Below are positions 27,967 to 41,642 of a DNA stretch of 64,000 bases, one piece after another. Source of the stretch: an uncultured bacterium (GTDB lineage Bacteria; Babelota; Babeliae; Babelales; Babelaceae); NCBI GenBank assembly GCA_963722385.1, contig CAVRKK010000002.1, forward strand, positions 1,056,001-1,120,000, in the 5' to 3' direction. Made by a program: the position numbers and the translations under genes. Under the pieces are notes generated by a model. That model had not been told where the DNA came from, searched no databases, and saw only the letters and a program-made list of their open reading frames with translations. The stretch's first letter is position 1; every line of letters starts with the position of its first letter.

Positions 27967-28032
27967 TTGTAAAAATAATCAGGCTTATTTATAATATGAT
28001 CTAAAGGTAAGAGTGAGTCTTACCTTTAGATC
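27967..28032 (+). promoter_or_regulatory. AbiE promoter with perfect operator palindrome
   Basis: TTGTAA-17-TATAAT followed by GATCTAAAGGTAAGA-gtgag-TCTTACCTTTAGATC (27998-28032). Confidence 0.8.
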
Positions 28033-28048
28033 CCCAAATAGGTTGATC

Positions 28049-28666
28049 ATGAAAAAAGGTTTTTTAAAAGATATTTTAAGGCTGAATCAGACGGTATATT
28101 CTTTTAAAGAGCTTGCTTTGCTTTGGCCAAATACCGAACCGAAAACACTCAAATCACGGTTACATTACTATGTTCAGGAAGGAGATCTTTATCATATTCG
28201 GCGTGGCTTATATGCTAAAGATAAAAAATACGATCGCTTTGAGCTTGCCACTAAGATTATGGCTCCTGCGTATATTAGTTTCGAATCAGTTCTAGTACCA
28301 GCAGGGATTATATTTCAACATTATAAGACTATTTTTGTTGCCTCAGACCAGTCAAAAGATATTCTTTGTGATGGCCAACTTTATTCTTTCACAAAGCTTA
28401 AATACTCACTTCTTACTGACGCGACGGGGATTGAGCTGCTTCAAAATTACAGTATAGCCAGCGCTGAAAGAGCTTTCCTAGATATTCTATACATCAATAA
28501 AAGTTACTATTTTGATAATCTGAGCCCACTTAATTGGAATAAAATCTATGAGATTCTACCAGTCTATAAGAACAAGAGCATGGCAAAAACAGTTGACCTC
28601 TACCATAAAACAGCGCAAGATATAGATGACAATCGATTCTACTCAACACAAAGATATCCTCATTAG
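28049..28666 (+). CDS. Type IV TA antitoxin, AbiEi-like
   Basis: wHTH (LYHIRRGLY), PAYISFESVL, IASAERAFLD. Confidence 0.88.
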   Translation: MKKGFLKDILRLNQTVYSFKELALLWPNTEPKTLKSRLHYYVQEGDLYHIRRGLYAKDKKYDRFELATKIMAPAYISFESVLVPAGIIFQHYKTIFVASDQSKDILCDGQLYSFTKLKYSLLTDATGIELLQNYSIASAERAFLDILYINKSYYFDNLSPLNWNKIYEILPVYKNKSMAKTVDLYHKTAQDIDDNRFYSTQRYPH

Positions 28667-29342
28667 GATACTCAAAGATATTTTTAGCAACCCAGCAATA
28701 GGCCCCTACCTTGGTTTTAAAGGAGGAACAGCCGCACTCCTTTTTTACGGATTGCCACGCTTTTCCGTGGATTTAGATTTCGATCTTCTTGATAGTACTA
28801 AAGAAAAACAGGTTTTCAACGAATGTAAAAGAACTTTAGAGAGCTATGGCATAGTGAAAGAGGCTCAAGATAAACGGTATAGCCTTTTCTTTCTTCTTTC
28901 TTACATCAATAAAAGACAGAATGCTTATAATATCAAGGTTGAGATTAATAAAAGAAATTTTGGATCTGAGTATGAGCTCAAACAATATCTTGGTATACTT
29001 ATGAAGGTCATGGTTCAAGCAGATATGGTAGCTCATAAAATGGTTGCAATGTACGAACGAATTGGAAAAGCCAACCGCGATATCTTCGATGTTTGGTTTT
29101 TCTTACACAATAATTGGCCTATCAATAAAAAAATTATCGAACAAAGAACACAGATGACATATAGCCAATTTTTGAAAAAGTGTATTGAGAATTTAGAAAA
29201 AATGAGTGACCGAAATATACTTTCCGGTATCGGCGAACTACTCGATGAAAAGCAGAAAGCTTGGGCTAAAGCAAAACTAAGAGCTGAAACGGTCTTCTTG
29301 CTTCAGTTAACGCTCAATAATGAGATCCAACAAACAACCTAA
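28626..29342 (+). CDS. Type IV TA toxin, AbiEii nucleotidyltransferase
   Basis: FKGGTA..LFYGLPRFSVDLDF, K..A...R...RDIFD. Confidence 0.92.
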   Translation: MTIDSTQHKDILIRILKDIFSNPAIGPYLGFKGGTAALLFYGLPRFSVDLDFDLLDSTKEKQVFNECKRTLESYGIVKEAQDKRYSLFFLLSYINKRQNAYNIKVEINKRNFGSEYELKQYLGILMKVMVQADMVAHKMVAMYERIGKANRDIFDVWFFLHNNWPINKKIIEQRTQMTYSQFLKKCIENLEKMSDRNILSGIGELLDEKQKAWAKAKLRAETVFLLQLTLNNEIQQTT

Positions 29343-29434: not shown

Positions 29435-30573
29435 CAGGACTTCCGCTAATTGGTGAAAAATCTGGTTAGGATTGACATTTAAGAAAATAAGAGCTCCAAT
29501 AATGTTGTTCAAAACAAAAAGGAGCTCTTAATGTTGCTTATAAGCGAACAAAAATCAACATATCCACTTGCGTTGCTTTTGTCTAGCGGTAAAAAAACTT
29601 GCGAAGGAATGGGCAGATTATTGAGCAAAAGTGGCGATTCAATCATAAGATTGCTAGAGCGCCATGTGACAACAATCGACCAATTAATAGATTTTGCAAA
29701 ATTTATCTTCAAGAACAAAGACTTATACCTTGTTTTACATGATACGTTTATAGAAAAAATGTACTCTGTAGCTATAGAAGGTACAAGCGATAACAGGGAT
29801 CATTCAAACGGGACAGTTTATCGTTCATTGTGTTCAATAGTAGCCATGATAACCGATGGAAAAAGCGGCATAGCAATAGATCATAGATTGTGGGCATCAA
29901 AAGAAGTAGTTCAAATCAGCTATAAAAGCAAGACAGAACTCGCTCAGGACCTTATAGAAAGCATTACTGCTAGAATAGCGGTTAAACTAGTCATAATGGA
30001 TGGACTTTATGCAACAGAAAGCCTGATTCAATGGCTATCTAGCGCAAACATATTTTTCGAAATGCGCTTCCATTCGAATAGAAGGCTTAAAAGCAGCGAT
30101 GGTAATACATTCGTAATTAGGGACTGCCCTGGCTTAAAGCTTAAGGGAAGAAAGAAAAGCGTGACTATAACAGCTTATTGGAAAAATATATCTCTCTTTT
30201 TTACTGCTGTGAAAAGGAAAGCAAAAGATGGTTACGTTGTTCTTTACCAAGTAAGCAATTATTCGACCTCTTCTGCTCATCACAAACTGCTTTATTCTTA
30301 CAGATGGAATATAGAGATGTTTTTTAGAACCGCAAAACAATATCTAAAATTACAAGATTGCCAGTCAAGAAAATTGAAGCTGCAAAAAATCATACCATGA
30401 ATGTTTTTCTTGCTTACGCATTACTACAGTCCAAACGCATTAAGCAAAGAATTGCTAACCAAGAAATTGCTCTTAGACGCATTAAAGACCATTTCTTAAG
30501 CAACTCGTCATTTCCCTTTTCAGCTGGCCATCAGATCTTTCGTCATTTTCAAGCTCTTTATGCGTAACTCCTG
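29435..30573 (+). mobile_element. IS701/IS4-like insertion sequence
   Basis: Ends CAGGACTTCCGC and GCGTAACTCCTG (rc CAGGAGTTACGC) bracket a DDE transposase; no clear target duplication. Confidence 0.75.
29531..30567 (+). pseudogene. IS701-like transposase, frameshifted at the A6 run ~30384-30389
   Basis: LHDT..EK, MDGLYA, Y.YRWNIEMFFR.AKQ.L.L.DCQSR; the tail NHTMNVFLAYALLQ is in another frame. Confidence 0.8.
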
Positions 30574-30734
30574 CAGGCTTTCCTCTTGATTTTTGTTAAG
30601 AAAAAGTTAGGATAATAAACATCGAATAAGAAATATGAGTCAAAAAGTATTAAGTTGTTAAGAAGGAGATACTGGTATTGATCAACGTAATAAAAATCAA
30701 GTAAAAGATATCAACATTAAAGGGAGGGTTGCTA

Positions 30735-31880
30735 ATGAAAGAGAATATATTATTAAGTATAGCAACATATTTACTCATCAATGTATCAATGAGTGCTGGA
30801 GTATGTGCTCTCCAATCTTACGCTGTACCGCCTGCTAGCGGTGTTGGCGCAATTCCTTATTCAGCAGCATTTTCACCGTCAGGTTTTTATTTGGCTACTG
30901 CTAATTATAGCACGAATAATGTAACCATATTTACCGTAGAATCGGGAGAGACCTTGAATGGAGGTACATCATATGCTTTACCAGCAGGCTCAACGGATCC
31001 TCAGTCAGTAGCGTTCTCGCCTAATGGCTTATATCTCGCTACTGCTAACTTTAGCTCAAAGGATGTAACGATATTTCAGGTAGGAGCAGGGGGTATTCTG
31101 AATGGAGGAACATCTTATACTTTGCCTTCTGGTTCTCAGTATCCTAATTCAGTAGCATTTTCACCCAACGGTTTATATCTTGCTACCGCTAATGAATTAG
31201 ATGTAACTATATTCCAAGTAGGGGCAGGAGGCGCACTATCAGGAGCGATTTCTTATGTTTTACCAAGCGGTTCTATTGGACCCCATTTAGCAGCTTTCTC
31301 ACCTGATGGATCATATCTTGCTACTGCTAATAGCGTTTCAAATGACGTAACGATATTTCAAATAGGAGCTGGAGGGGTATTGTCAGGAGAAAAGTCTTAC
31401 GCATTACCAAGCGGTTCTACTAGTCCAGAGGCGGTAGCATTTTCACCTAATGGATTATACCTTGCTACTGCTAATTTTTTCTCAAGTGATGTAACAGTAT
31501 TTACTGTAGGATCAGGAGGAGCTTTGAGTGGAGGAACATCATATGCATTACCAGGTTCTACCACACCAACATCAATCACATTTTCACCTAATGGATTATA
31601 CCTTGCTACTCAAAGTGCAGGTTCAAATGGTGTCTCAAATGGTGTAACATTATTTCAAGTAGGAGGAGTGCTATCGGGAGAAGATTCTTGTGCTTTACCT
31701 TCCGGTTCTGATGAGCCTTTTTCGGTAACATTTTCACCAGATAGCTCTTATATAGCTACAGCTAATAATTCATATGATGTTACGATATTTAGTATGAATT
31801 GCACATGCTCTAATTCAGGTTTAAGCTCTAGCAACGCTGCAAGCCATTTGCAAAGTTTACTTATGTATGGTTTGGATTAA
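30735..31880 (+). CDS. Secreted beta-propeller repeat protein (lactonase-like fold)
   Basis: Seven ~46-aa repeats SY.LP.GS..P.SVAFSP.G.YLATAN...DVT.F; signal peptide. Confidence 0.88.
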   Translation: MKENILLSIATYLLINVSMSAGVCALQSYAVPPASGVGAIPYSAAFSPSGFYLATANYSTNNVTIFTVESGETLNGGTSYALPAGSTDPQSVAFSPNGLYLATANFSSKDVTIFQVGAGGILNGGTSYTLPSGSQYPNSVAFSPNGLYLATANELDVTIFQVGAGGALSGAISYVLPSGSIGPHLAAFSPDGSYLATANSVSNDVTIFQIGAGGVLSGEKSYALPSGSTSPEAVAFSPNGLYLATANFFSSDVTVFTVGSGGALSGGTSYALPGSTTPTSITFSPNGLYLATQSAGSNGVSNGVTLFQVGGVLSGEDSCALPSGSDEPFSVTFSPDSSYIATANNSYDVTIFSMNCTCSNSGLSSSNAASHLQSLLMYGLD

Positions 31881-32030: not shown

Positions 32031-32268
32031 CTATAGGCATTGAAAACTACTTGCTATCAATCTTAGAACATGTATCAGCTGCAATGCAACCTCAATCAAT
32101 TTTGTATATTATTGAATCAATATTTGATTATTGTGATAATGAGAGAGAAATGGCTAGTGCGGATATGCAAATGCTTAAGTACAGTCCCGAACTGGCAATG
32201 CATATTGACCAGGAAAAATTTATTACTTCAGAATCTGATCTTGAAATCGAATTAAGAATGGCAACTGT

Positions 32269-32472
32269 TCAAAGGTTCATAAGGGCAACAAGGTCATGTG
32301 TCTTCTTAAGTGCTTGGTGTTTATAAACCAAAAAGGCTTTGAATGCCTTTTCTGCGCATTGTTGAGTATGAAACAAAATAGGACCAACAATAACTTCCGA
32401 AGATGAAGCAATAATTTTAGCAATCCTTAGGTCTTGCTCAGCAAATTCAAGCCATTCTTTATGCTTTTGCAT
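32269..32472 (-). pseudogene. HEPN-domain protein, 3'-truncated
   Basis: EWLEFAEQDL..A, FHTQQCAEKAFKAFL, KTHDL..L, then a stop at 67 aa. Confidence 0.82.
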
Positions 32473-32605
32473 AAATACGCTTGCCTTTCCGTTTAATTTT
32501 GTAGTGAAGAGTGCTTAAATTTTCGGAATCCTCTTCAAATTCCTCTTTGCTCAGTATAAGCAAATCTTTAGACAAGGGAAGATCCATAAGGGCTTGGTGG
32601 CCTTG
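32459..32605 (-). pseudogene. MNT (minimal nucleotidyltransferase) C-terminal fragment
   Basis: Manual translation ...ALMDLPLSKDLLILSKEEFEE...LHYKIKRKGKRIYAKA*, overlapping the HEPN start; 5' part missing. Confidence 0.75.
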
Positions 32606-32615
32606 AAAGAAGCAA

Positions 32616-33863
32616 ATGAATAAGAATTCATTCTTAACATTTATACTCGCTATAGCTTTTTTGTTTACGTTGCCGCTAAAGCCAGGATTGGATGAGAACC
32701 AAGACGACGGTTTTCCTTATTGGACATTAGTGCAGACAGACAAAGGCGATAAGAAACTTTGCTTTTTAAAAATGAGTGATAAGCTGATTTCCCTGGTTGA
32801 TGGCAGCTGTGCCCCAGCCGAGGTTATTAAGGCAGAGATATCTGAAGAGATTCGAGATTTATATGCTGTGTATATAGAAGATGAAGTTCTTCTTTGTGGA
32901 GGAGCTACACGGTTCTTTGTAATTGAGAAAAACAATTGGGTCAAAGCTATTGATCTGCGCGATGGTGATCATTTAGTCAGTAATAAAGATAATAAGCCAC
33001 AGCAGGTTGTGTGTAAAGGATGCCAAATAACATGCGTAGGGCATCTGCTTTATAGGATGCAGATTGATAACCCTACCCATTGCTACTTTGTTGGTGAAAA
33101 CGCTGTTTTGGTTCATAACTATCTTCCTGCGGTTATTTTTAACGCAACTGTGGCATTTGGTGAAGGTGCTGCCGCAGGAGGCTCTAGTGGTAGCTACTTT
33201 GGTCCTTTAGGTATTAGTGTTGGCGTCATATTTGGTGGCATTCTCGGTCTAGGTATAGGCAAGTGGTGCTCAGATTCAGATCATCGAGCGAGAGAAGATG
33301 AGTATCTTCGAGATTCTGATAAACTCAACTTTGAATCTTTCCAAGCAAAGTATAAAGGTGCCTCGGTTGGTGCAAAACGGTGTAAATATGATGTTAGGCT
33401 AGGCATGGTATGCGATTTGCCGCAGGAAGATAGTTCTACATCCTGGTATGAGAACCCTGAAGCTTCGAGCAAATCAAAGCAGCCGAAAGAAGATTTGAAG
33501 CATCAAGCGAGTGCTGCTACTGGTGGACCTGATGATCCCAAAGATCCTCAAAATAGGCAAAGCCAAAGCACTACAGCAAAGCCGCCGAAGGACGATGGAA
33601 ACGAGAGTATTGAGAGCATTAAAAGAGGTATAAGAAGTTCCGAAAAAAGAATCAAGGAACACGAAGAAAAGCTTGAAAAATATAAGAAGAATCCTGATGC
33701 AGAAGATCATCTGGGAAAACTGAAAAAAGCACGAAATTCTCAAGAAAGACAAAGCATAATTGATACTAAAATAAAGAAAATAGAAACAGAACTTAGAACC
33801 TTCAGAAACAATATAGAGAAAGACAAAATAAGGTTGCGCAAAAGAGGCGTAGAATGGAGCTAA
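32616..33863 (+). CDS. Polymorphic toxin 1: signal peptide + Hint domain + Gly-rich hydrophobic segment + helical C-terminal tip
   Basis: GFPYWTLVQT...WVKAIDLRDGDHL...THCYFVGENAVLVHN Hint signature (aa ~32-168); tip IRSSEKRIKEHEEKLEKYKKNPDAED. Confidence 0.85.
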   Translation: MNKNSFLTFILAIAFLFTLPLKPGLDENQDDGFPYWTLVQTDKGDKKLCFLKMSDKLISLVDGSCAPAEVIKAEISEEIRDLYAVYIEDEVLLCGGATRFFVIEKNNWVKAIDLRDGDHLVSNKDNKPQQVVCKGCQITCVGHLLYRMQIDNPTHCYFVGENAVLVHNYLPAVIFNATVAFGEGAAAGGSSGSYFGPLGISVGVIFGGILGLGIGKWCSDSDHRAREDEYLRDSDKLNFESFQAKYKGASVGAKRCKYDVRLGMVCDLPQEDSSTSWYENPEASSKSKQPKEDLKHQASAATGGPDDPKDPQNRQSQSTTAKPPKDDGNESIESIKRGIRSSEKRIKEHEEKLEKYKKNPDAEDHLGKLKKARNSQERQSIIDTKIKKIETELRTFRNNIEKDKIRLRKRGVEWS

Positions 33864-34510
33864 CGGTTCAAGAGCTTAGTCAATCGTTTGATGTGGTAAT
33901 AAGTTATTTTGATAAACAAAACATCAAAGACATTTCCTTCCCGAATGATGATTATTATCCTCAAGTATTACGTGAAGATTTAAACTTTAGTAATCCTAAT
34001 TTCTTAAGATGCCCTCAACGAGTAACAGGCTCCCTCTACGACGATTTGGTAATCTGGAAAAATACTCTGAATGAGGGTGAGGATGCGGTATATGGGGTAA
34101 GTGGAGTGCTTATAAGTAACTTTGGTGGTATTTTAAGAGCTTTCGGTCAAGTATCAGATAAACTTGATAATCCTTCTCCCATTAGAAATGTTGTGCCTCC
34201 GGGGTATCCCAAGGAGCCACCGCCCAAATTAACCATACATGAGCTTCAAAAAATCTTTAACCTCGTAGTAAGGTGGCTTAAAATGCGACATAATTCACCT
34301 GATATTTCTTTTGAAGACCCCCGCTACATTAAGATTGCCCTCAAGGATGAATATTTGGGTATGGAGTGCCCACCTTATACGATAGGCTCTTTAGATGATT
34401 GCATAAAAACCTGGAAAGAAATTTTGAACAATAAGGCTGAACCATCAGCGTTTGCCATTGAGCAGCTTGGTGATCTATTGATTGCTTTTGGTGAAGAAAT
34501 AGATAAATGA
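33854..34510 (+). CDS. Putative immunity protein 1 (two tandem ~105-aa domains)
   Basis: Overlaps the toxin stop; repeated L...EL..F...Y...GSL.D...WK..L...G.L.AFG pattern. Confidence 0.75.
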   Translation: MELTVQELSQSFDVVISYFDKQNIKDISFPNDDYYPQVLREDLNFSNPNFLRCPQRVTGSLYDDLVIWKNTLNEGEDAVYGVSGVLISNFGGILRAFGQVSDKLDNPSPIRNVVPPGYPKEPPPKLTIHELQKIFNLVVRWLKMRHNSPDISFEDPRYIKIALKDEYLGMECPPYTIGSLDDCIKTWKEILNNKAEPSAFAIEQLGDLLIAFGEEIDK

Positions 34511-35187
34511 AGTTAATTCTTGATGAGCTTGATAAAATATTTAATATAGTGATAAAGAATTTTAATCAACGGGGCATCAAAAAAATCTCTTTTTTTAGTG
34601 AGGATTATTACCCCTTAGTTAAGCGTCAAGATTTAGATTTTCTTGTTGATAAACCTCTATGCTTAAAAAAATATCCATCCTATGGGCTAGGCTCGTTGGA
34701 TTGGAATTTTGAAGTCTGGAAAGGTATGTTGAGTGATAAGGATGCTGTATGGGGAATGTCATCAGGAATCCAGATAGAAGATCTTGGTGGCATTTTGACA
34801 GCTTTTGGTCAAATATCAGATAAACTCAGTAATCCCGATCCTATTAAAAATATTCTACCTGAGGGATATCCCAAGGAAAAGCCACCAGTATTAACCATTT
34901 ATGAGTTGCAAAAAATCTTTGATCTTGTGATTAGGTTTTTAAAAATGGACCATTATTCAGAAATATCTTTTGAAGATCCTCGCTACATTAAGATTGCTCT
35001 CAAAAACGAATATTTAGGCATAGAGTGCCCTCCTTATACTATCGGTTCCTTAAATGATTGCATAAAAACATGGAAAGATATCCTAACTACGCATTCAGCA
35101 CCAACTGCACTTGCTATTGAGCAGCTTGGCGATTTGTTAACAGCTTTTGGTGAAGAAATCGGGCTGTCTCCAATTGGGAAAAGTTGA
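34507..35187 (+). CDS. Putative immunity protein 2, paralog of 33854-34510
   Basis: Near-identical C-terminal half ISFEDPRYIKIALK.EYLG.ECPPYTIGSL; ATGA coupling. Confidence 0.75.
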   Translation: MKLILDELDKIFNIVIKNFNQRGIKKISFFSEDYYPLVKRQDLDFLVDKPLCLKKYPSYGLGSLDWNFEVWKGMLSDKDAVWGMSSGIQIEDLGGILTAFGQISDKLSNPDPIKNILPEGYPKEKPPVLTIYELQKIFDLVIRFLKMDHYSEISFEDPRYIKIALKNEYLGIECPPYTIGSLNDCIKTWKDILTTHSAPTALAIEQLGDLLTAFGEEIGLSPIGKS

Positions 35188-35189
35188 CA

Positions 35190-35328
35190 GAAATCCTGAA
35201 GGCCTATGACAAGCTAACCAAGAAAGTACTTTCCCTTCCCTAGAATTGAAAAACTAATGACAGAAATTAAAAGCCATCGGGCTAGAGCAAAAGAATTTCA
35301 AGATATATTGTTGAAAAGAGGCAAGTAA
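35190..35328 (+). pseudogene. Orphan toxin C-terminal remnant
   Basis: ...RIEKLMTEIKSHRARAKEFQDILLKRGK* aligns with KIKKIETELRTFRNNIEKDKIRLRKRG of toxin 1; TAATG coupling to the next gene. Confidence 0.6.
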
Positions 35329-35969
35329 TGAAGTTAACGCTTCATGAACTTATCAAGATATTTGAAATAGTAATACAGTATTTCAATCAACAGGGTGTTA
35401 AAAAAATTTCTTTTGTTGCCGAAGATTATTACCCCCAAGTATTACGTAAAGATTTAGACTTCGATAATCCTGATTTCTTAAAATGTCCCCATTTTCTTCT
35501 AGGCTCTTTAGATTGGAACTTTGAGGTCTGGAAAGGCATTTTAAAGGAAAAGGAGGAAGGAGTATATGAAATATCTGGGGGGATTATAGATTATCTTGGG
35601 GGTATTTTAACTGCTTTTGGTCAAGTATCAGATAAACTTGATAATCCTACTTTTATTAAAAATATCCCATTTGAAGGACAACGACCTCAACTAACTCTAG
35701 ATGAGCTACAAAAAATATTCGATTTAACAATTCAAGCGATTAAGCGGTAGTATAATCCCGAGATATCTTTTGAAGATCCTCGCTACATTAAGGTTGCCCT
35801 TAAGGATGAATATATAGACATGGAGTGCCCTCCCTATACCATAGAGTCCTTAGATGACTGTATCAAAGCCTGGAAAGAAATTTTGAGCGGTAAGGCTGAA
35901 CCATCTGCGCTTGCCATCGAACAGCTCGGTGATCTATTGACTGCTTTTGGTGAAGAAATAGAGAGGTAA
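35328..35969 (+). pseudogene. Putative immunity protein 3 with an in-frame TAG at 35748-35750
   Basis: The frame continues YNPEISFEDPRYIKVALKDEY...AFGEEIER* to 35969. Confidence 0.8.
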
Positions 35970-36080
35970 ACAACTCCTCTCTAAAGTGGGAAGCTTTATA
36001 GTCAGCTAAAAAAACTGCTACATTCGGACAATCTACAGTGCGCGTTGGAGCATCGGCCGATACTCCAATTCTACGGATGT

Positions 36081-36144
36081 AAGGAAAATAGAAACAAGGT
36101 TTAGAACTTCAGAAACAATATAGAGAAAGACAAGATTAAGATTG
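36081..36144 (+). repeat. Degenerate copy of the toxin-1 3' end (33774-33835)
   Basis: GAAAATAGAAACA...TTAGAAC(C)TTCAGAAACAATATAGAGAAAGACAA shared. Confidence 0.85.
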
Positions 36145-36280
36145 TCGCAATTTTTTGATGCTAGAGCAAGTCGAAAAAGCCTTCACATAAAAGATAGATA
36201 TGGTAGTATCATAACTCCCAAAGATTGAAGAGTAGTGTAAGCAAGAGGACTGGACAAAACGCGCATAAAGAAAGAAGTCA

Positions 36281-37407
36281 ATGAATAAGAATTCATTCTT
36301 AACATTTTTTCTCGCTATAGCTTTTTTGTTTACGTTGTCGCTAAAGCCAGGATTGGATGAGAACCAAGACGACGGTTTTCCTTATTGGACACTGGTGCAG
36401 ACGGACAAAGGCGATAAGAAACTTTGCTTTTTAAAAATGAGTGATAAGCTGATCTCCCTGGTTGATGGCAGCTGTGCCCCAGCCGAGGTTATTAAGGCAG
36501 AGATATCTGAAGAGATACGAGATTTATATGCTGTGTATATAGAAGATGAAGTTCTTCTTTGTGGAGGAGCTACACGGTTCTTTGTAATTGAGAAAAACAA
36601 TTGGGTCAAAGCTGTTGATCTGCGCGATGGTGATCATTTAGTAAGCAATAAAGACAATAAGCCACAGCAGGTTGTATGTAGAGGATGCCAAGTAACCTGC
36701 ATAGGCATCTTCTGTATAGGATGCAGATTGATAACCCCACCCGTTGCTACTTTGTTGGTGAAAACGCTGTTTTGGTTCATAACCATCTTCCTGCCGTCAT
36801 TTTTAGCGCGAGTGTGGCATTCGGTGAAGGTGCCGTCGCGGGAGGCTCCAGTGGTAGCTACTTTGGTCCTGTCGGTATTAGTGTTGGTGTCTTATTTGGT
36901 GGCATTCTCGGTATAGGTATAGGTAAGTGGTGCTCAGATTCGGAAGGCCGAGCAAGAGAAGATGAATATTTAAGAGACTTGGATAACCTTGACATCGACT
37001 CCTTCAGAGCTAAGTACAAGGGTAGTGCTGGCTCACGTACTAACAAGCCTGAAAAACGCCCATGCGATCCTTTCAATCCAAGACCTGGGGATGATTGTTA
37101 TTATGTTGATGCACCCTATCACCATTTTAACAGTGTCGGCAATCAGTATGAGGGTAAAAGTAGGGCACCAAGAGATGGGCAGGAGGCTTTATGGAATTCT
37201 GTAAGGGTAAAAGCGAACAAGCCTCGCCGAGTAGGAATCAGCCAGGGAGAGTTTGTTGTTCTTGATTATACTTGTCATGATGGTAATGGAAATTGCCAAT
37301 TCCATGGTCATGTAAGAGAATGGGACGGGCTAGACCAAAATATGAAAAACGCGCTACAGGACAAAGGCTTGGTTAACAAAAGTGGGAAGATACTTAAAAA
37401 ATGGTAA
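36281..37407 (+). CDS. Polymorphic toxin 2 (frameshifted by one missing G at ~36704): same N-terminus as toxin 1, different RNase-like tip
   Basis: Near-identical DNA to 32616-33360; tip APRDGQEALWNSV...RRVGI..GEFVVLD...FHGHVREW. Confidence 0.82.
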
Positions 37408-38102
37408 GCGCGATTTTTCGCTTTAATTTTAATGAGCAACGATTCATCGAGTTTCTTTTTCGATGCACGTTGGATGAAATTTTTAGGTTTCAAGAAGTAA
37501 CTGTTACTTTTAAGGACGTATCTGACGCAAGTTATCTGCTTTATACTAATGATTTCATAATTGATGCTTTGATGGACTTATATAATGGCCTTAAGCGCGC
37601 TGTAGAGCATAACTTAGAGCTTGATACCTCTATTATTCCTAATTCTGAAAAGCACGATATTGGTTATCTATGGAGTATATATTGCCATAAACATTGTACA
37701 GATGACTTTGATCATAAAAACATTGAAAACTCAATTAATAAGGGGCTCACGGGAGAAAATCGTTTGATTTTTACTGGAACAGGTGAAGAGAGAAGATGGG
37801 TTGGGTTGCGTTACCATGTTTGGAGCTCTAATGAAGGCCTATGCGATACATGGCTATATAATAAAAACGGGTCAATTTTCTTAGAGGTCACTCCTTCCTA
37901 CAAATGGCATGCTATTGATCCAAAAGAAGGTGAAGAATTCTTCAGTTATAGTGATTTCATGAAAAATTATAAACCCTATGTTATAGCTCAACTGGACCAA
38001 CAAAATGCAGAGGAGTGGCTTAAACAGATTAACTGCCTTTTCGATATTATTAAGCGCAACGACCCAAAATATATAGGTTGCCCTCAAGAGAGAATGCCAT
38101 AA
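37401..38102 (+). CDS. Putative immunity protein for toxin 2
   Basis: Overlaps the toxin-2 stop; unrelated to immunity proteins 1-3. Confidence 0.7.
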   Translation: MVSAIFRFNFNEQRFIEFLFRCTLDEIFRFQEVTVTFKDVSDASYLLYTNDFIIDALMDLYNGLKRAVEHNLELDTSIIPNSEKHDIGYLWSIYCHKHCTDDFDHKNIENSINKGLTGENRLIFTGTGEERRWVGLRYHVWSSNEGLCDTWLYNKNGSIFLEVTPSYKWHAIDPKEGEEFFSYSDFMKNYKPYVIAQLDQQNAEEWLKQINCLFDIIKRNDPKYIGCPQERMP

Positions 38103-38121
38103 CATTCGTGCGGGCTAGACC

Positions 38122-38162
38122 AAAAAAAGCGGCAAGCTGTTTTATAGCTTGCCACTTTTTTT
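38122..38162 (+). terminator. Intrinsic (bidirectional-type) terminator closing the toxin locus
   Basis: AAAAAAAGCGGCAAGCT...AGCTTGCCACTTTTTTT. Confidence 0.75.
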
Positions 38163-40076: not shown

Positions 40077-41642
40077 TTACATGTTATCTTTTATCGGTTC
40101 GCTGATCCAATCAAGGATAAGCTCTTTGTTTTTGTAGTTGAAAGATATACCAACAAGCGTTAAGGGCTTATTTTGATGAAGATATTTTTCATGGTAACGC
40201 TGATTAATAATTTGCTGGAGTGCTTCTTGCGCAGACTTATTAAATTTGAATTCAAAGATAAAGATTCTTTGAGGCATGGTAATAGCTAAATCAATTCTTC
40301 CCTTACTTGTATGTGTCTCTGGGTGAACCTCCACTCCCAATAATAATGCCATAAAGTGTAGGAGCGAATGATAATAACTTTCGCGTTCAACATGCAAATC
40401 ATAAGGAATGTTAGCAAGTAAACCAGAAATTATAGAGCAAAAAGTATCTAAATCATTGTGGTTTAATGCTTTTTTGATTTGAGAAATTATTCCTTCGACA
40501 GCTGTAACCTGAATATTGGCAAGCATACTAAGCATAAGGTGAGACATGGATAACTGAACTTCTTCATTTGGAAAGCCTAATGTGTAGAGGTTAGTTTGCT
40601 CGTTGTAATCTTTAATAGTTAAGTAACCTGCTTGTTGTAAAAGAATAAGAGGCGGAACCTTGCCTAAATTAAACGAGCCATTGAGCGTATCAAAGTTTAA
40701 TACCTTCTTATCCATTGTGCTTAGTTCTGAAGGATCTTTCTTAAGGAGGTTAACTAAAAAAGAGGGAGTTCCAGAAGTAAACCAATAGTTAGCACGGTCT
40801 TTATTCTTTAAGTAGTACAAAATAGAAAAAGGATTATATACATAGGTAGTTGCTTTTGAAAAACGATACCCATTGTACCAGATCTTTATCTCCCGGTATA
40901 CAGAATCAATCGCGATCTCTTTCTTTTTGGAATATTCTTCGATGTATAATTCGAAGTACATTCTGATTTCTTCTATGGTATATCCTAAAAGTGTGCTACT
41001 TTCTGGCAGAAGAGAAATATCGTTTAAGTTATTCATCCCAGAAAAGATTGATGTTTTAGCAAATTTAGTTACACCTGTTATAAAAATAGCATGGAAGTAT
41101 GCGTCAAGTCCCTTAATAGCATCATAAAAGCCATGCAATATTGCTCGTTGCTGTTCTGCCACAGCTATATTATCTATGTGGTCAAGAAGCGGTTTGTCAT
41201 ATTCATCAACCAAAAGAACGATTTTCCCTTTTTGAGCAAGCTGTGTAATTAAGTTATACGTTTTGTCCTCAAGAAGACCTTCATCAAGCGTGATGCCATA
41301 CGATTTTGCTATTAAACTAAGGCGGTTGCTTAAGCTTATCTCTAAATGCTCTGGCGTTCTATGAGCTATAGTGGAGAAATCTAGGTATATGATAGGATAC
41401 TCTGTCCAAGTATGACAGCCATACTTACCAATCCATAGATCTTCAAAAAGCCTTTTATTTCCTGCAAATATTTGCTTTATGGTGGAGATCAAAAGAGATT
41501 TGCCGAATCGACGCGGCCTTGATAAAAAATAAAGTCTCCCTTTAGCCAAGAGATTATCAATTTGTTCAGTCTTATCAATGTAAAGATAATTTTCAGTGAT
41601 CAGTGTTTCAAAGTCACTAACATCAACAGGGAGCTTTTTCAC
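40077..41642 (-). CDS. AAA-ATPase-like + PD-(D/E)XK nuclease protein
   Basis: RPRRFGKSL, LVDEYDKP, YNPFS, GRIDL...IFEFK; GTG start. Confidence 0.92.
   Translation of the reverse strand: MKKLPVDVSDFETLITENYLYIDKTEQIDNLLAKGRLYFLSRPRRFGKSLLISTIKQIFAGNKRLFEDLWIGKYGCHTWTEYPIIYLDFSTIAHRTPEHLEISLSNRLSLIAKSYGITLDEGLLEDKTYNLITQLAQKGKIVLLVDEYDKPLLDHIDNIAVAEQQRAILHGFYDAIKGLDAYFHAIFITGVTKFAKTSIFSGMNNLNDISLLPESSTLLGYTIEEIRMYFELYIEEYSKKKEIAIDSVYREIKIWYNGYRFSKATTYVYNPFSILYYLKNKDRANYWFTSGTPSFLVNLLKKDPSELSTMDKKVLNFDTLNGSFNLGKVPPLILLQQAGYLTIKDYNEQTNLYTLGFPNEEVQLSMSHLMLSMLANIQVTAVEGIISQIKKALNHNDLDTFCSIISGLLANIPYDLHVERESYYHSLLHFMALLLGVEVHPETHTSKGRIDLAITMPQRIFIFEFKFNKSAQEALQQIINQRYHEKYLHQNKPLTLVGISFNYKNKELILDWISEPIKDNM

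Follow-up and report, generated by a model that had tools for sequence, protein, structure and literature searches.

Zhang et al. tabulated unstalked polymorphic toxins of the Sec/type II secretion system route that carry a signal peptide and a HINT domain (PMC3482391), and the class 1 MafB proteins of Neisseria combine a signal peptide, a BIL (bacterial intein-like) domain of the A type and a variable tip, without repeats, with a mafI immunity gene and downstream cassettes (PMC4287609). The kind of system described here is therefore already known, as signal peptide plus HINT toxins and as MafB with its BIL domain. The present locus occupies positions 32616 to 38162 of a 64,000-nucleotide stretch of DNA (the window; contig CAVRKK010000002.1 of assembly GCA_963722385.1, positions 1,056,001 to 1,120,000) from an uncultured member of the Babelaceae. 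The phylum Babelota (Dependentiae, TM6) is described as strictly intracellular and parasitic on protists (PMC12172432). We read the locus, with a probability of about 65%, as part of a compact scaffold-free polymorphic toxin/immunity family of Babelota that acts mainly against other bacteria by the mechanism proposed below; that it is a polymorphic toxin system at all is close to certain.

The Babelota proteins resemble the class of Zhang et al. in having a putative signal peptide, a HINT domain, a variable C-terminal toxin and a coupled immunity gene in about 400 aa, but the HINT domain of that class, as described in the main text, directly precedes and frees the toxin domain (PMC3482391). 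In the Babelota family the Hint domain instead directly follows the signal peptide and lacks the first-position cysteine (Cys1), and a hydrophobic Gly-rich segment lies between it and the tip; no such family is named in the parts of the main text of Zhang et al. that were covered, supplement aside (PMC3482391). MafB differs in its head of about 300 aa (DUF1020) before the BIL domain, in its often having mafA upstream, and in its extra copies being headless cassettes, where the Babelota copies are whole genes (PMC4287609); domain scans found no DUF1020 in family proteins. The order signal peptide, Cys-less Hint, glycine zipper and tip, with neither head nor stalk, and its spread in Babelota had no description in the literature searched, from which supplements and subscription journals were excluded. 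Term searches in papers on Babela, TM6 genomics, Chromulinavorax and Babelota ecology (main texts only) returned no Hint or intein domain and no polymorphic or interbacterial toxin. In the portion covered of a systematic toxin screen, PT-HINT comes up once and Dependentiae not at all (10.1101/2021.10.19.465003); the literature considered also included 10.1101/2023.02.26.530123 and PMC9086364.

All features of the locus lie on the + strand. Two toxin genes, beginning at 32616 and 36281, share a signal-peptide-like start, a Hint domain ending in VLVHN and the Gly-rich segment, and part after the residues AKYKG into unrelated C-terminal tips, each overlapped by its own downstream gene (by 10 nt for tip A and 7 nt for tip B). 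Apart from the overlap lengths, all of this had been seen in an earlier note made from the sequence alone. DNA identity between the copies is 96% over codons 1-168, 89% over codons 169-219 and 71% over codons 220-248, far above chance. The first copy, toxin A (32616..33863), is an intact 415-aa protein with a putative signal peptide at about aa 1-24, a short acidic spacer, a Hint domain at aa 32-168 (32709..33119), the Gly-rich hydrophobic segment at aa 169-219 (33120..33272), a disordered linker and tip A (33600..33851), an unnamed helical-hairpin toxin domain. In its AlphaFold model the Hint is confident, residues 183-235 form a helix of moderate confidence, the linker is disordered and a hairpin spans 332-409. 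The second copy, toxin B (36281..37407), had been taken for one open gene; a one-base gap near 36703, within the Hint, instead splits it into two reading frames (36281-36916 and 36685-37407), with tip B at 37159..37386. The earlier note had placed one immunity gene after each tip, and both are present, but it had missed that toxin A is followed by three paralogues (starting at 33854, 34507 and 35328).

The source genome (1.6 Mb in 2 contigs, with ankyrin-rich genes and two secretins) belongs to a phylum in which the toxin family is common. The N-terminus of toxin A alone matches 69 of 261 Babelota genomes, and a profile of 28 N-terminal sequences, of the kind the earlier note had proposed, matches 108 of the 261 and 71 of 145 genera, with tips and downstream genes tabulated. 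Searched against a 50% representative protein library, this profile retrieved 341 proteins at E ≤ 1e-30, of which the best 150, together with three earlier hits, gave a set of 144 after removal of proteins longer than 700 aa, fragments and repeats; 122 of the 144 bear a tip, and the tip statistics rest on these 122. NCBI gives one member, found in a genome of the same taxonomic family, the name 'Hint domain-containing protein [Candidatus Babeliaceae bacterium]', and assigns another, from the same order, to '[Candidatus Babeliales bacterium]'. A word-indexed protein search found four matches for toxin A and, for bare tip A, only itself, fewer than the profile searches. The plasmid collection contained eight records matching in the Hint part only, none spanning 80% of the query; the phage collection had no match, and scans of viral and metagenome contigs with single proteins as query gave no confirmed match.

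Rather than sharing one C-terminus, the finding that the earlier note had said would speak against its reading, the 122 proteins fall into 30 tip clusters. A named toxin family is matched by 42 of them (Ntox37 in 26, Ntox21 in 11, Cytotoxic in 2, and a ribonuclease, Ntox33 and Ntox17 in one each), two of these matches lying under the gathering score, and colicin E3-like and barnase-like tips occur among the clusters. Five of 12 pairs with N-termini at least 70% identical bear different tips, and a quick tree of the family supports tip switching. No repeat stalk and no Rhs, CdiA, LXG or PAAR trafficking domain was found in any of the 122 proteins, and the fold model leaves no room for one, which agrees with the absence of a delivery scaffold (FHA included) that had been noticed in the window. 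Nor is there a conserved upstream partner in Babelota, where 79 upstream open reading frames (ORFs) fall into 68 clusters.

Downstream genes are tightly coupled to the tips. Across 69 loci there are 80 family ORFs; 78 of these are followed by another ORF, always on the same strand and in 72 cases within 60 nt. The downstream family is shared by 341 of 389 same-tip pairs and by 19 of 2461 pairs whose tips differ; shuffles average 49 and reach 84 at most. The same-tip figure is inflated by kinship, since relatives are not independent. Downstream genes include CdiI_N, CdiI_ImmP and CdiI_3. Together with the clusters and known toxin domains, this covariation upholds the polymorphic toxin/immunity reading first made for the locus. 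Two side observations concern turnover of such arrays: an EndoU tip split from its toxin gene (L017:779-1141), and a CdiI_N domain fused to an Ntox21 piece (L013:2281-2898).

Tip A matches no Pfam or NCBIfam toxin model, yet its profile homologues are the C-termini of Rhs, type VII secretion system (T7SS), PT-HINT, PT-TG, PT-VENN and extracellular contractile injection system proteins. Its best match in atlas searches, at 0.87, is hypothetical, and ImmA1 has none there; PDB sequence searches with tip A, ImmA and ImmB gave no real match, and fold searches with tip A returned generic hairpins only (best VanR, Z 9.5, root-mean-square deviation (rmsd) 2.2 Å over 84 aligned residues), which establish neither a likeness nor a new fold. 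The conserved His, Lys, Tyr, Asp, Asn and Arg of the domain suggest an enzyme acting on nucleic acid. Overlapping tip A is ImmA1 (33854..34510, 218 aa), its predicted cognate and a tandem duplication of an immunity domain of about 100 aa. Outside Babelota, the gene after tip A encodes a single-domain relative of ImmA at 73 of 73 loci (55 of them seeds of the ImmA profile), an ImmA-family gene occurs in none of 28 loci with other tips, and the profile detects both halves of ImmA1 (E 1e-11). The predicted ImmA1-tip A complex scores 0.94, the best control 0.44, and runs agree on at least 94% of contacts with a partner pLDDT (predicted local distance difference test) of 90; 116 of 157 solved pairs and 2 of 215 mismatched ones attain the mark used, figures that hold only roughly. 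In the model the conserved DYY and GSL motifs of ImmA1 meet the second helix of tip A, and PDB sequence searches found no complex resembling it. Homology and modeling thus point to ImmA1 as the likely cognate of tip A, in an unnamed pair spread over many phyla.

Tip B is homologous to the CdiA toxin domain of Cupriavidus taiwanensis (PDB 5T87 chain E; E 4.6e-13 over 73 of 76 residues), a domain catalogued as CDD cd20695 and also kept by Rickettsia (PMC9111745). The likeness extends to rickettsial rCRCT-3a, from bacteria that are also intracellular (PMC9111745); the locus differs from the CdiA system in having no CdiA stalk and no CdiB. The gene after tip B, ImmB (37401..38102, 233 aa, intact), has no sequence match to the CdiI of 5T87, and groups with the genes after all seven other 5T87-like tips. 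The terminator that had been placed at the end of the locus corresponds to a hairpin at 38131..38153; its position fits, while the scan by itself is weak (6 sites against 4.8 expected in shuffles).

Toxin A matches PT-HINT at E 3e-5, and 117 of the 122 tip-bearing proteins do so at E ≤ 0.001; by fold, the structures nearest to toxin A are inteins and BIL domains, the top one at E 3.7e-9 with an rmsd of 2.3 Å, and the best fold and sequence matches are the Tetrahymena BIL2 domain, inteins and a Clostridium BIL. Position 1 is Gly in 143 of 144 family Hints, Cys1 having been lost, whereas six classical pretoxin Hints used as controls all begin with Cys. The block F His is kept in 140 of 144 and the C-terminal His-Asn in 144 of 144, in a domain that is otherwise about 25% identical, while the block B position holds Gln in 69 of 80 and His in 5 of 80. 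The residue after the Asn is mostly Met, Ile, Thr or Val, with no Cys or Ser among those listed; in toxin A, which has Gly for Cys1, the block F His and the His-Asn end, it is Tyr. These Hints are thus like inteins and A-type BIL domains in fold and C-terminal His-Asn, and unlike them in having Gly1, Gln for the block B His and no +1 nucleophile, so that standard chemistry forbids splicing and N-terminal cleavage. C-terminal cleavage by A-type BIL domains uses the block F His and His-Asn, according to a treatment of intein chemistry (PMC7765530), and by that chemistry it is the only reaction that would remain. A hydrophobic core with an AXA-like signal-peptidase site directly before His-Gly1 in 121 of 144 proteins (Gly1 at median residue 25) means that signal peptidase would supply the N-terminal cut of which the Hint is incapable.

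The earlier note had the Hint freeing a bare tip. Because the Hint stands before the hydrophobic segment, in reverse of the classical order, cleavage would instead yield a product that starts with that segment and continues through linker and tip. With Cys1 gone, His-Asn kept and this position, we consider it moderately likely that the Hint leaves as a self-cleaved leader and is not a releaser of naked toxin. It might alternatively stay uncut as a stable head for export or receptor binding, with the toxin delivered whole in the manner of the MafB or Amoebophilus N-terminal domains. The loss of Cys1 and the block B His would fit such a head, and constant heads peculiar to a lineage are known to follow signal peptides (PMC3482391). 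We nevertheless consider an uncut head very unlikely, since the residues kept in a domain otherwise so diverged are the ones used for C-terminal cleavage in A-type BIL domains (PMC7765530). As a side observation, the closest solved Hint is BIL2 of Tetrahymena BUBL1, both by sequence (E 6e-22, family alignment against the PDB) and by fold, ahead of bacterial BIL domains; shared ancestry of the Hint between protist parasites and ciliates is possible.

The roughly 50 residues after the Asn, which would form the new N-terminus, are nearly uncharged, with 22% Gly and 42% Gly, Ala and Ser together; a hydrophobic 19-mer occurs there in 65 of 75 members and GxxxG in 61 of 75, with a putative role in permeabilizing or crossing membranes. 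Toxin A has seven GxxxG motifs and a best 19-residue Kyte-Doolittle mean of 1.86. Elsewhere in the source genome, four paralogous ORFs of about 1350 aa (C2:348882, 366742, 841585 and 864278) faintly match the segment. Eight family members have no tip and consist of a signal peptide, a Hint and an uncharged Gly/Ala/Val-rich peptide of 59-77 residues, with no tightly coupled downstream gene (L118:9849-10571, L147:3956-4675, L163:1143-1829, L164:2520-3203, L165:266-997, L167:2036-2677, L167:4117-4791 and L175:2500-3147), and may be bacteriocin-like. Stand-alone GxxxG peptides that act after leader removal are represented by Caulobacter CdzC/D and the class II microcins, which use a type I secretion system and a transporter peptidase. 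A single member, in L185, carries a GH19 hydrolase as its tip, an enzyme whose action would lie outside the cytoplasm, and lacks the hydrophobic segment. We infer that the Hint caps an entry segment and can be removed from it, which fits both the tipless members and the GH19 member. Agrobacterium Tde1, for which translocation by a glycine zipper has been shown (PMC10240207), likewise has a GxxxG segment N-terminal of its toxin, a resemblance only; Tde1 depends on a type VI secretion system (T6SS) and a chaperone, whereas here the leader would be a self-cutting Hint.

The same segment could act as a stop-transfer anchor, leaving the Hint in the periplasm and the tip and its antidote in the producer's cytoplasm, as a membrane-tethered toxin-antitoxin or abortive-infection module. 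Its hydrophobicity is at transmembrane level in those 65 of 75 members, Lys or Arg follows it in several, and Gly-rich C-terminal anchors occur on other secreted proteins of the source genome. Yet a crude count of residues 46-70 after the Asn is net positive in 48 of 122 proteins and negative in 52, without positive-inside bias, and a segment so rich in Gly, Ala and Ser speaks against an anchor, which would also leave the orphan immunity genes and the tipless members unaccounted for. We regard it as improbable.

In the mechanism that we propose, the precursor would be kept harmless in the cytoplasm by its own immunity protein and exported by Sec, signal peptidase cutting at or just ahead of the first Hint residue, and would leave the periplasm by a type II system or in outer-membrane vesicles. 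The Hint would cut solely at its C-terminal Asn and drop off as a leader, unmasking an uncharged glycine-zipper N-terminus of about 50 residues, which would insert in the membrane of a neighboring cell and carry the tip, mostly an RNase-type domain, inside. The likely victims would be bacteria sharing the protist or food vacuole, whether related Babelota or others. Bacterial targets are probable because spare immunity genes pile up and tips exchange fast. Several points weigh against this proposal as a whole. Tip A differs at aa 365, 385 and 389, each invariant in 55 of 55 homologues, and its activity type is not indicated by fold, toxin B is frameshifted, the PT-HINT match of toxin A lies under the gathering score, and its signal-peptide cleavage site is atypical, with Pro and Lys preceding the spacer. 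A receptor-binding domain is not apparent, which leaves the crossing of a Gram-negative outer membrane without an explanation, and the segment after the Hint is hydrophobic enough to act as a stop-transfer anchor.

The same processing could also send the cargo into the protist cytosol or mitochondrion, immunity then protecting the producer only, so that the toxins would either kill the host to let the parasite out or penalize a host that loses it; the mitochondrial ribosome is bacterial-like. Such host-directed or addiction toxins would suit the strictly intracellular life of Babelota (PMC12172432), and Chromulinavorax sheds vesicles in the food vacuole and replicates wrapped in a host mitochondrion (PMC6561590). 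For a bare hydrophobic N-terminus, one eukaryotic membrane would also be an easier barrier than the envelope of a Gram-negative cell. Polymorphic toxins are likewise found in the protist endosymbiont Candidatus Bodocaedibacter vickermanii, a symbiont of Bodo for which addiction by such toxins has been proposed, although they are large, multidomain and T6SS-linked, and a text search of the paper returned no occurrence of 'Hint' (PMC8163844). However, immunity genes without a toxin, such as the three ImmA genes here and the fragments elsewhere, pay only against incoming toxins of kin, rapid tip exchange suits bacterial arms races, the tips are those of contact-dependent inhibition, Rhs and T7SS systems, and one relative has the GH19 tip. 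A host target is accordingly rather unlikely, and we retain the antibacterial reading.

The locus is partly decayed, with toxin A the sole whole toxin, because copy 2 is frameshifted, one ImmA gene is stopped and tip A departs from family-invariant residues; tip A as encoded may be weak or dead. ImmA1 is followed by ImmA2 (34507..35187, 226 aa), a paralogue 61% identical to it and without a toxin of its own, and by ImmA3 (35328..35969), which has an in-frame stop at codon 141 and a complete first domain. The three are 61-66% identical in pairs, each a tandem of the same domain. Two remnants of tip A lie in the spacers between ImmA paralogues or toxin copies, namely a piece of its C-terminus coupled to ImmA3 (35239..35328, tip-A profile E 7e-5) and 72 nt of the toxin A 3' end (36079..36150, 86% identical). 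The array reads as repeated duplication of toxin-immunity units followed by tip replacement and decay, and would still supply immunity through ImmA1, ImmA2 and ImmB.

Sequencing or assembly error was considered for the toxin B frameshift and rejected. The one-base gap and the copy-2 substitutions occur together, at depth 4-5 and within one study, in contigs from two of the four public runs compared, which makes a real break probable; these contigs are mosaics of both copies in which collapse and true recombination are indistinguishable. The ImmA3 stop is identical in a public contig spanning that position. At window position 32604, 12 nt before the start of toxin A, public contigs of two runs diverge into foreign sequence, and the two loose ends, which match nothing in the source genome, probably reflect an insertion that sister strains carry right at the border of the duplicated segment.

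Of four further toxin loci in the source genome, that at C2:419860 is intact, with tip A and ImmA, another is frameshifted, a third has lost the Hint by deletion and the last has a different C-terminus; two of the four are broken. Orphan ImmA fragments or spare immunity genes lie at C2:480349, C2:299568 and C2:1184343. For this locus only, and compatibly with the reading of the family given above, the array may have become an immunity reservoir after duplication and decay and no longer be a weapon. The frameshift, the broken ImmA3, the two tip remnants, the off-consensus tip A and the broken loci elsewhere all favor this, while the intact 415-aa frame of toxin A, the 12 silent against 5 replacement codon changes between the two Hints, and the retention in tip A of H349, K352, Y356, P360, D364 and R378 do not. 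We give the reservoir somewhat less than even odds.

Genes next to the locus were also noted. An AbiEii-type toxin-antitoxin pair and a broken HEPN gene (window 28013-29342 and 32051-32472) lie beside it, in a low-GC island of about 28-44 kb that also includes a DDE transposase (29531-30400) and an AAA-ATPase/PD-(D/E)XK gene (40077-41642). A secreted beta-propeller repeat gene (30729-31880) adjoins the toxin locus, and further secreted beta-propeller repeat genes (C2:300057-302363 and C2:1180673-1184029) also adjoin both orphan ImmA fragments elsewhere.

The design is also found outside Babelota. In the phylum of Oligoflexus, 17 of 131 genomes match; among 14 loci examined, about 10 have Gly1 Hints and the same design, and three have Cys1 Hints behind an extra domain. 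In three of these loci (L157, L158 and L161) a related secreted gene of 240-264 aa, with the motif N..F.LG after its signal peptide, stands directly upstream of the toxin; the one scanned has no Pfam match, and it is possibly a partner in that subfamily. In the phylum of Myxococcus, 15 of 201 genomes match, a tally that includes one unpublished genome (G1141) on which no conclusion depends. Among the loci examined there, the full design occurs only in three genomes of 1.6-1.8 Mb (L183, L184 and L185), hinting at a link to a reduced, host-bound life, and the two loci examined from large genomes are both Rhs with Cys1. Matches also came from the sample around Providencia (7 of 301) and from that around Cytophagales (1 of 251), the seven loci examined being six classical Cys1 Hints and one headless cassette. 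More tentatively, the family may represent a new mode of delivery and maturation, in which an intein-like domain serves as self-removing leader and chaperone, shielding a membrane-inserting glycine zipper during Sec export and then arming a cell-entering toxin of about 20 kDa without stalk, needle or partner. The tipless members would then form a new class of bacteriocin-like peptides matured by a Hint, and the design, having spread through bacteria with reduced genomes in three phyla, would be their weapon for fights inside protist cells.

The family yields a catalogue of toxin-immunity pairs, including the unnamed tip A and ImmA found across many phyla, and a supply of natural Hint domains that appear specialized for C-terminal self-cleavage. 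As the smallest Hint-bearing toxin design, it offers a test case for cell entry without a delivery machine. Babelota are protist parasites with few isolates, and the presence of the family in about four of every ten genomes suggests that Babelota fight.

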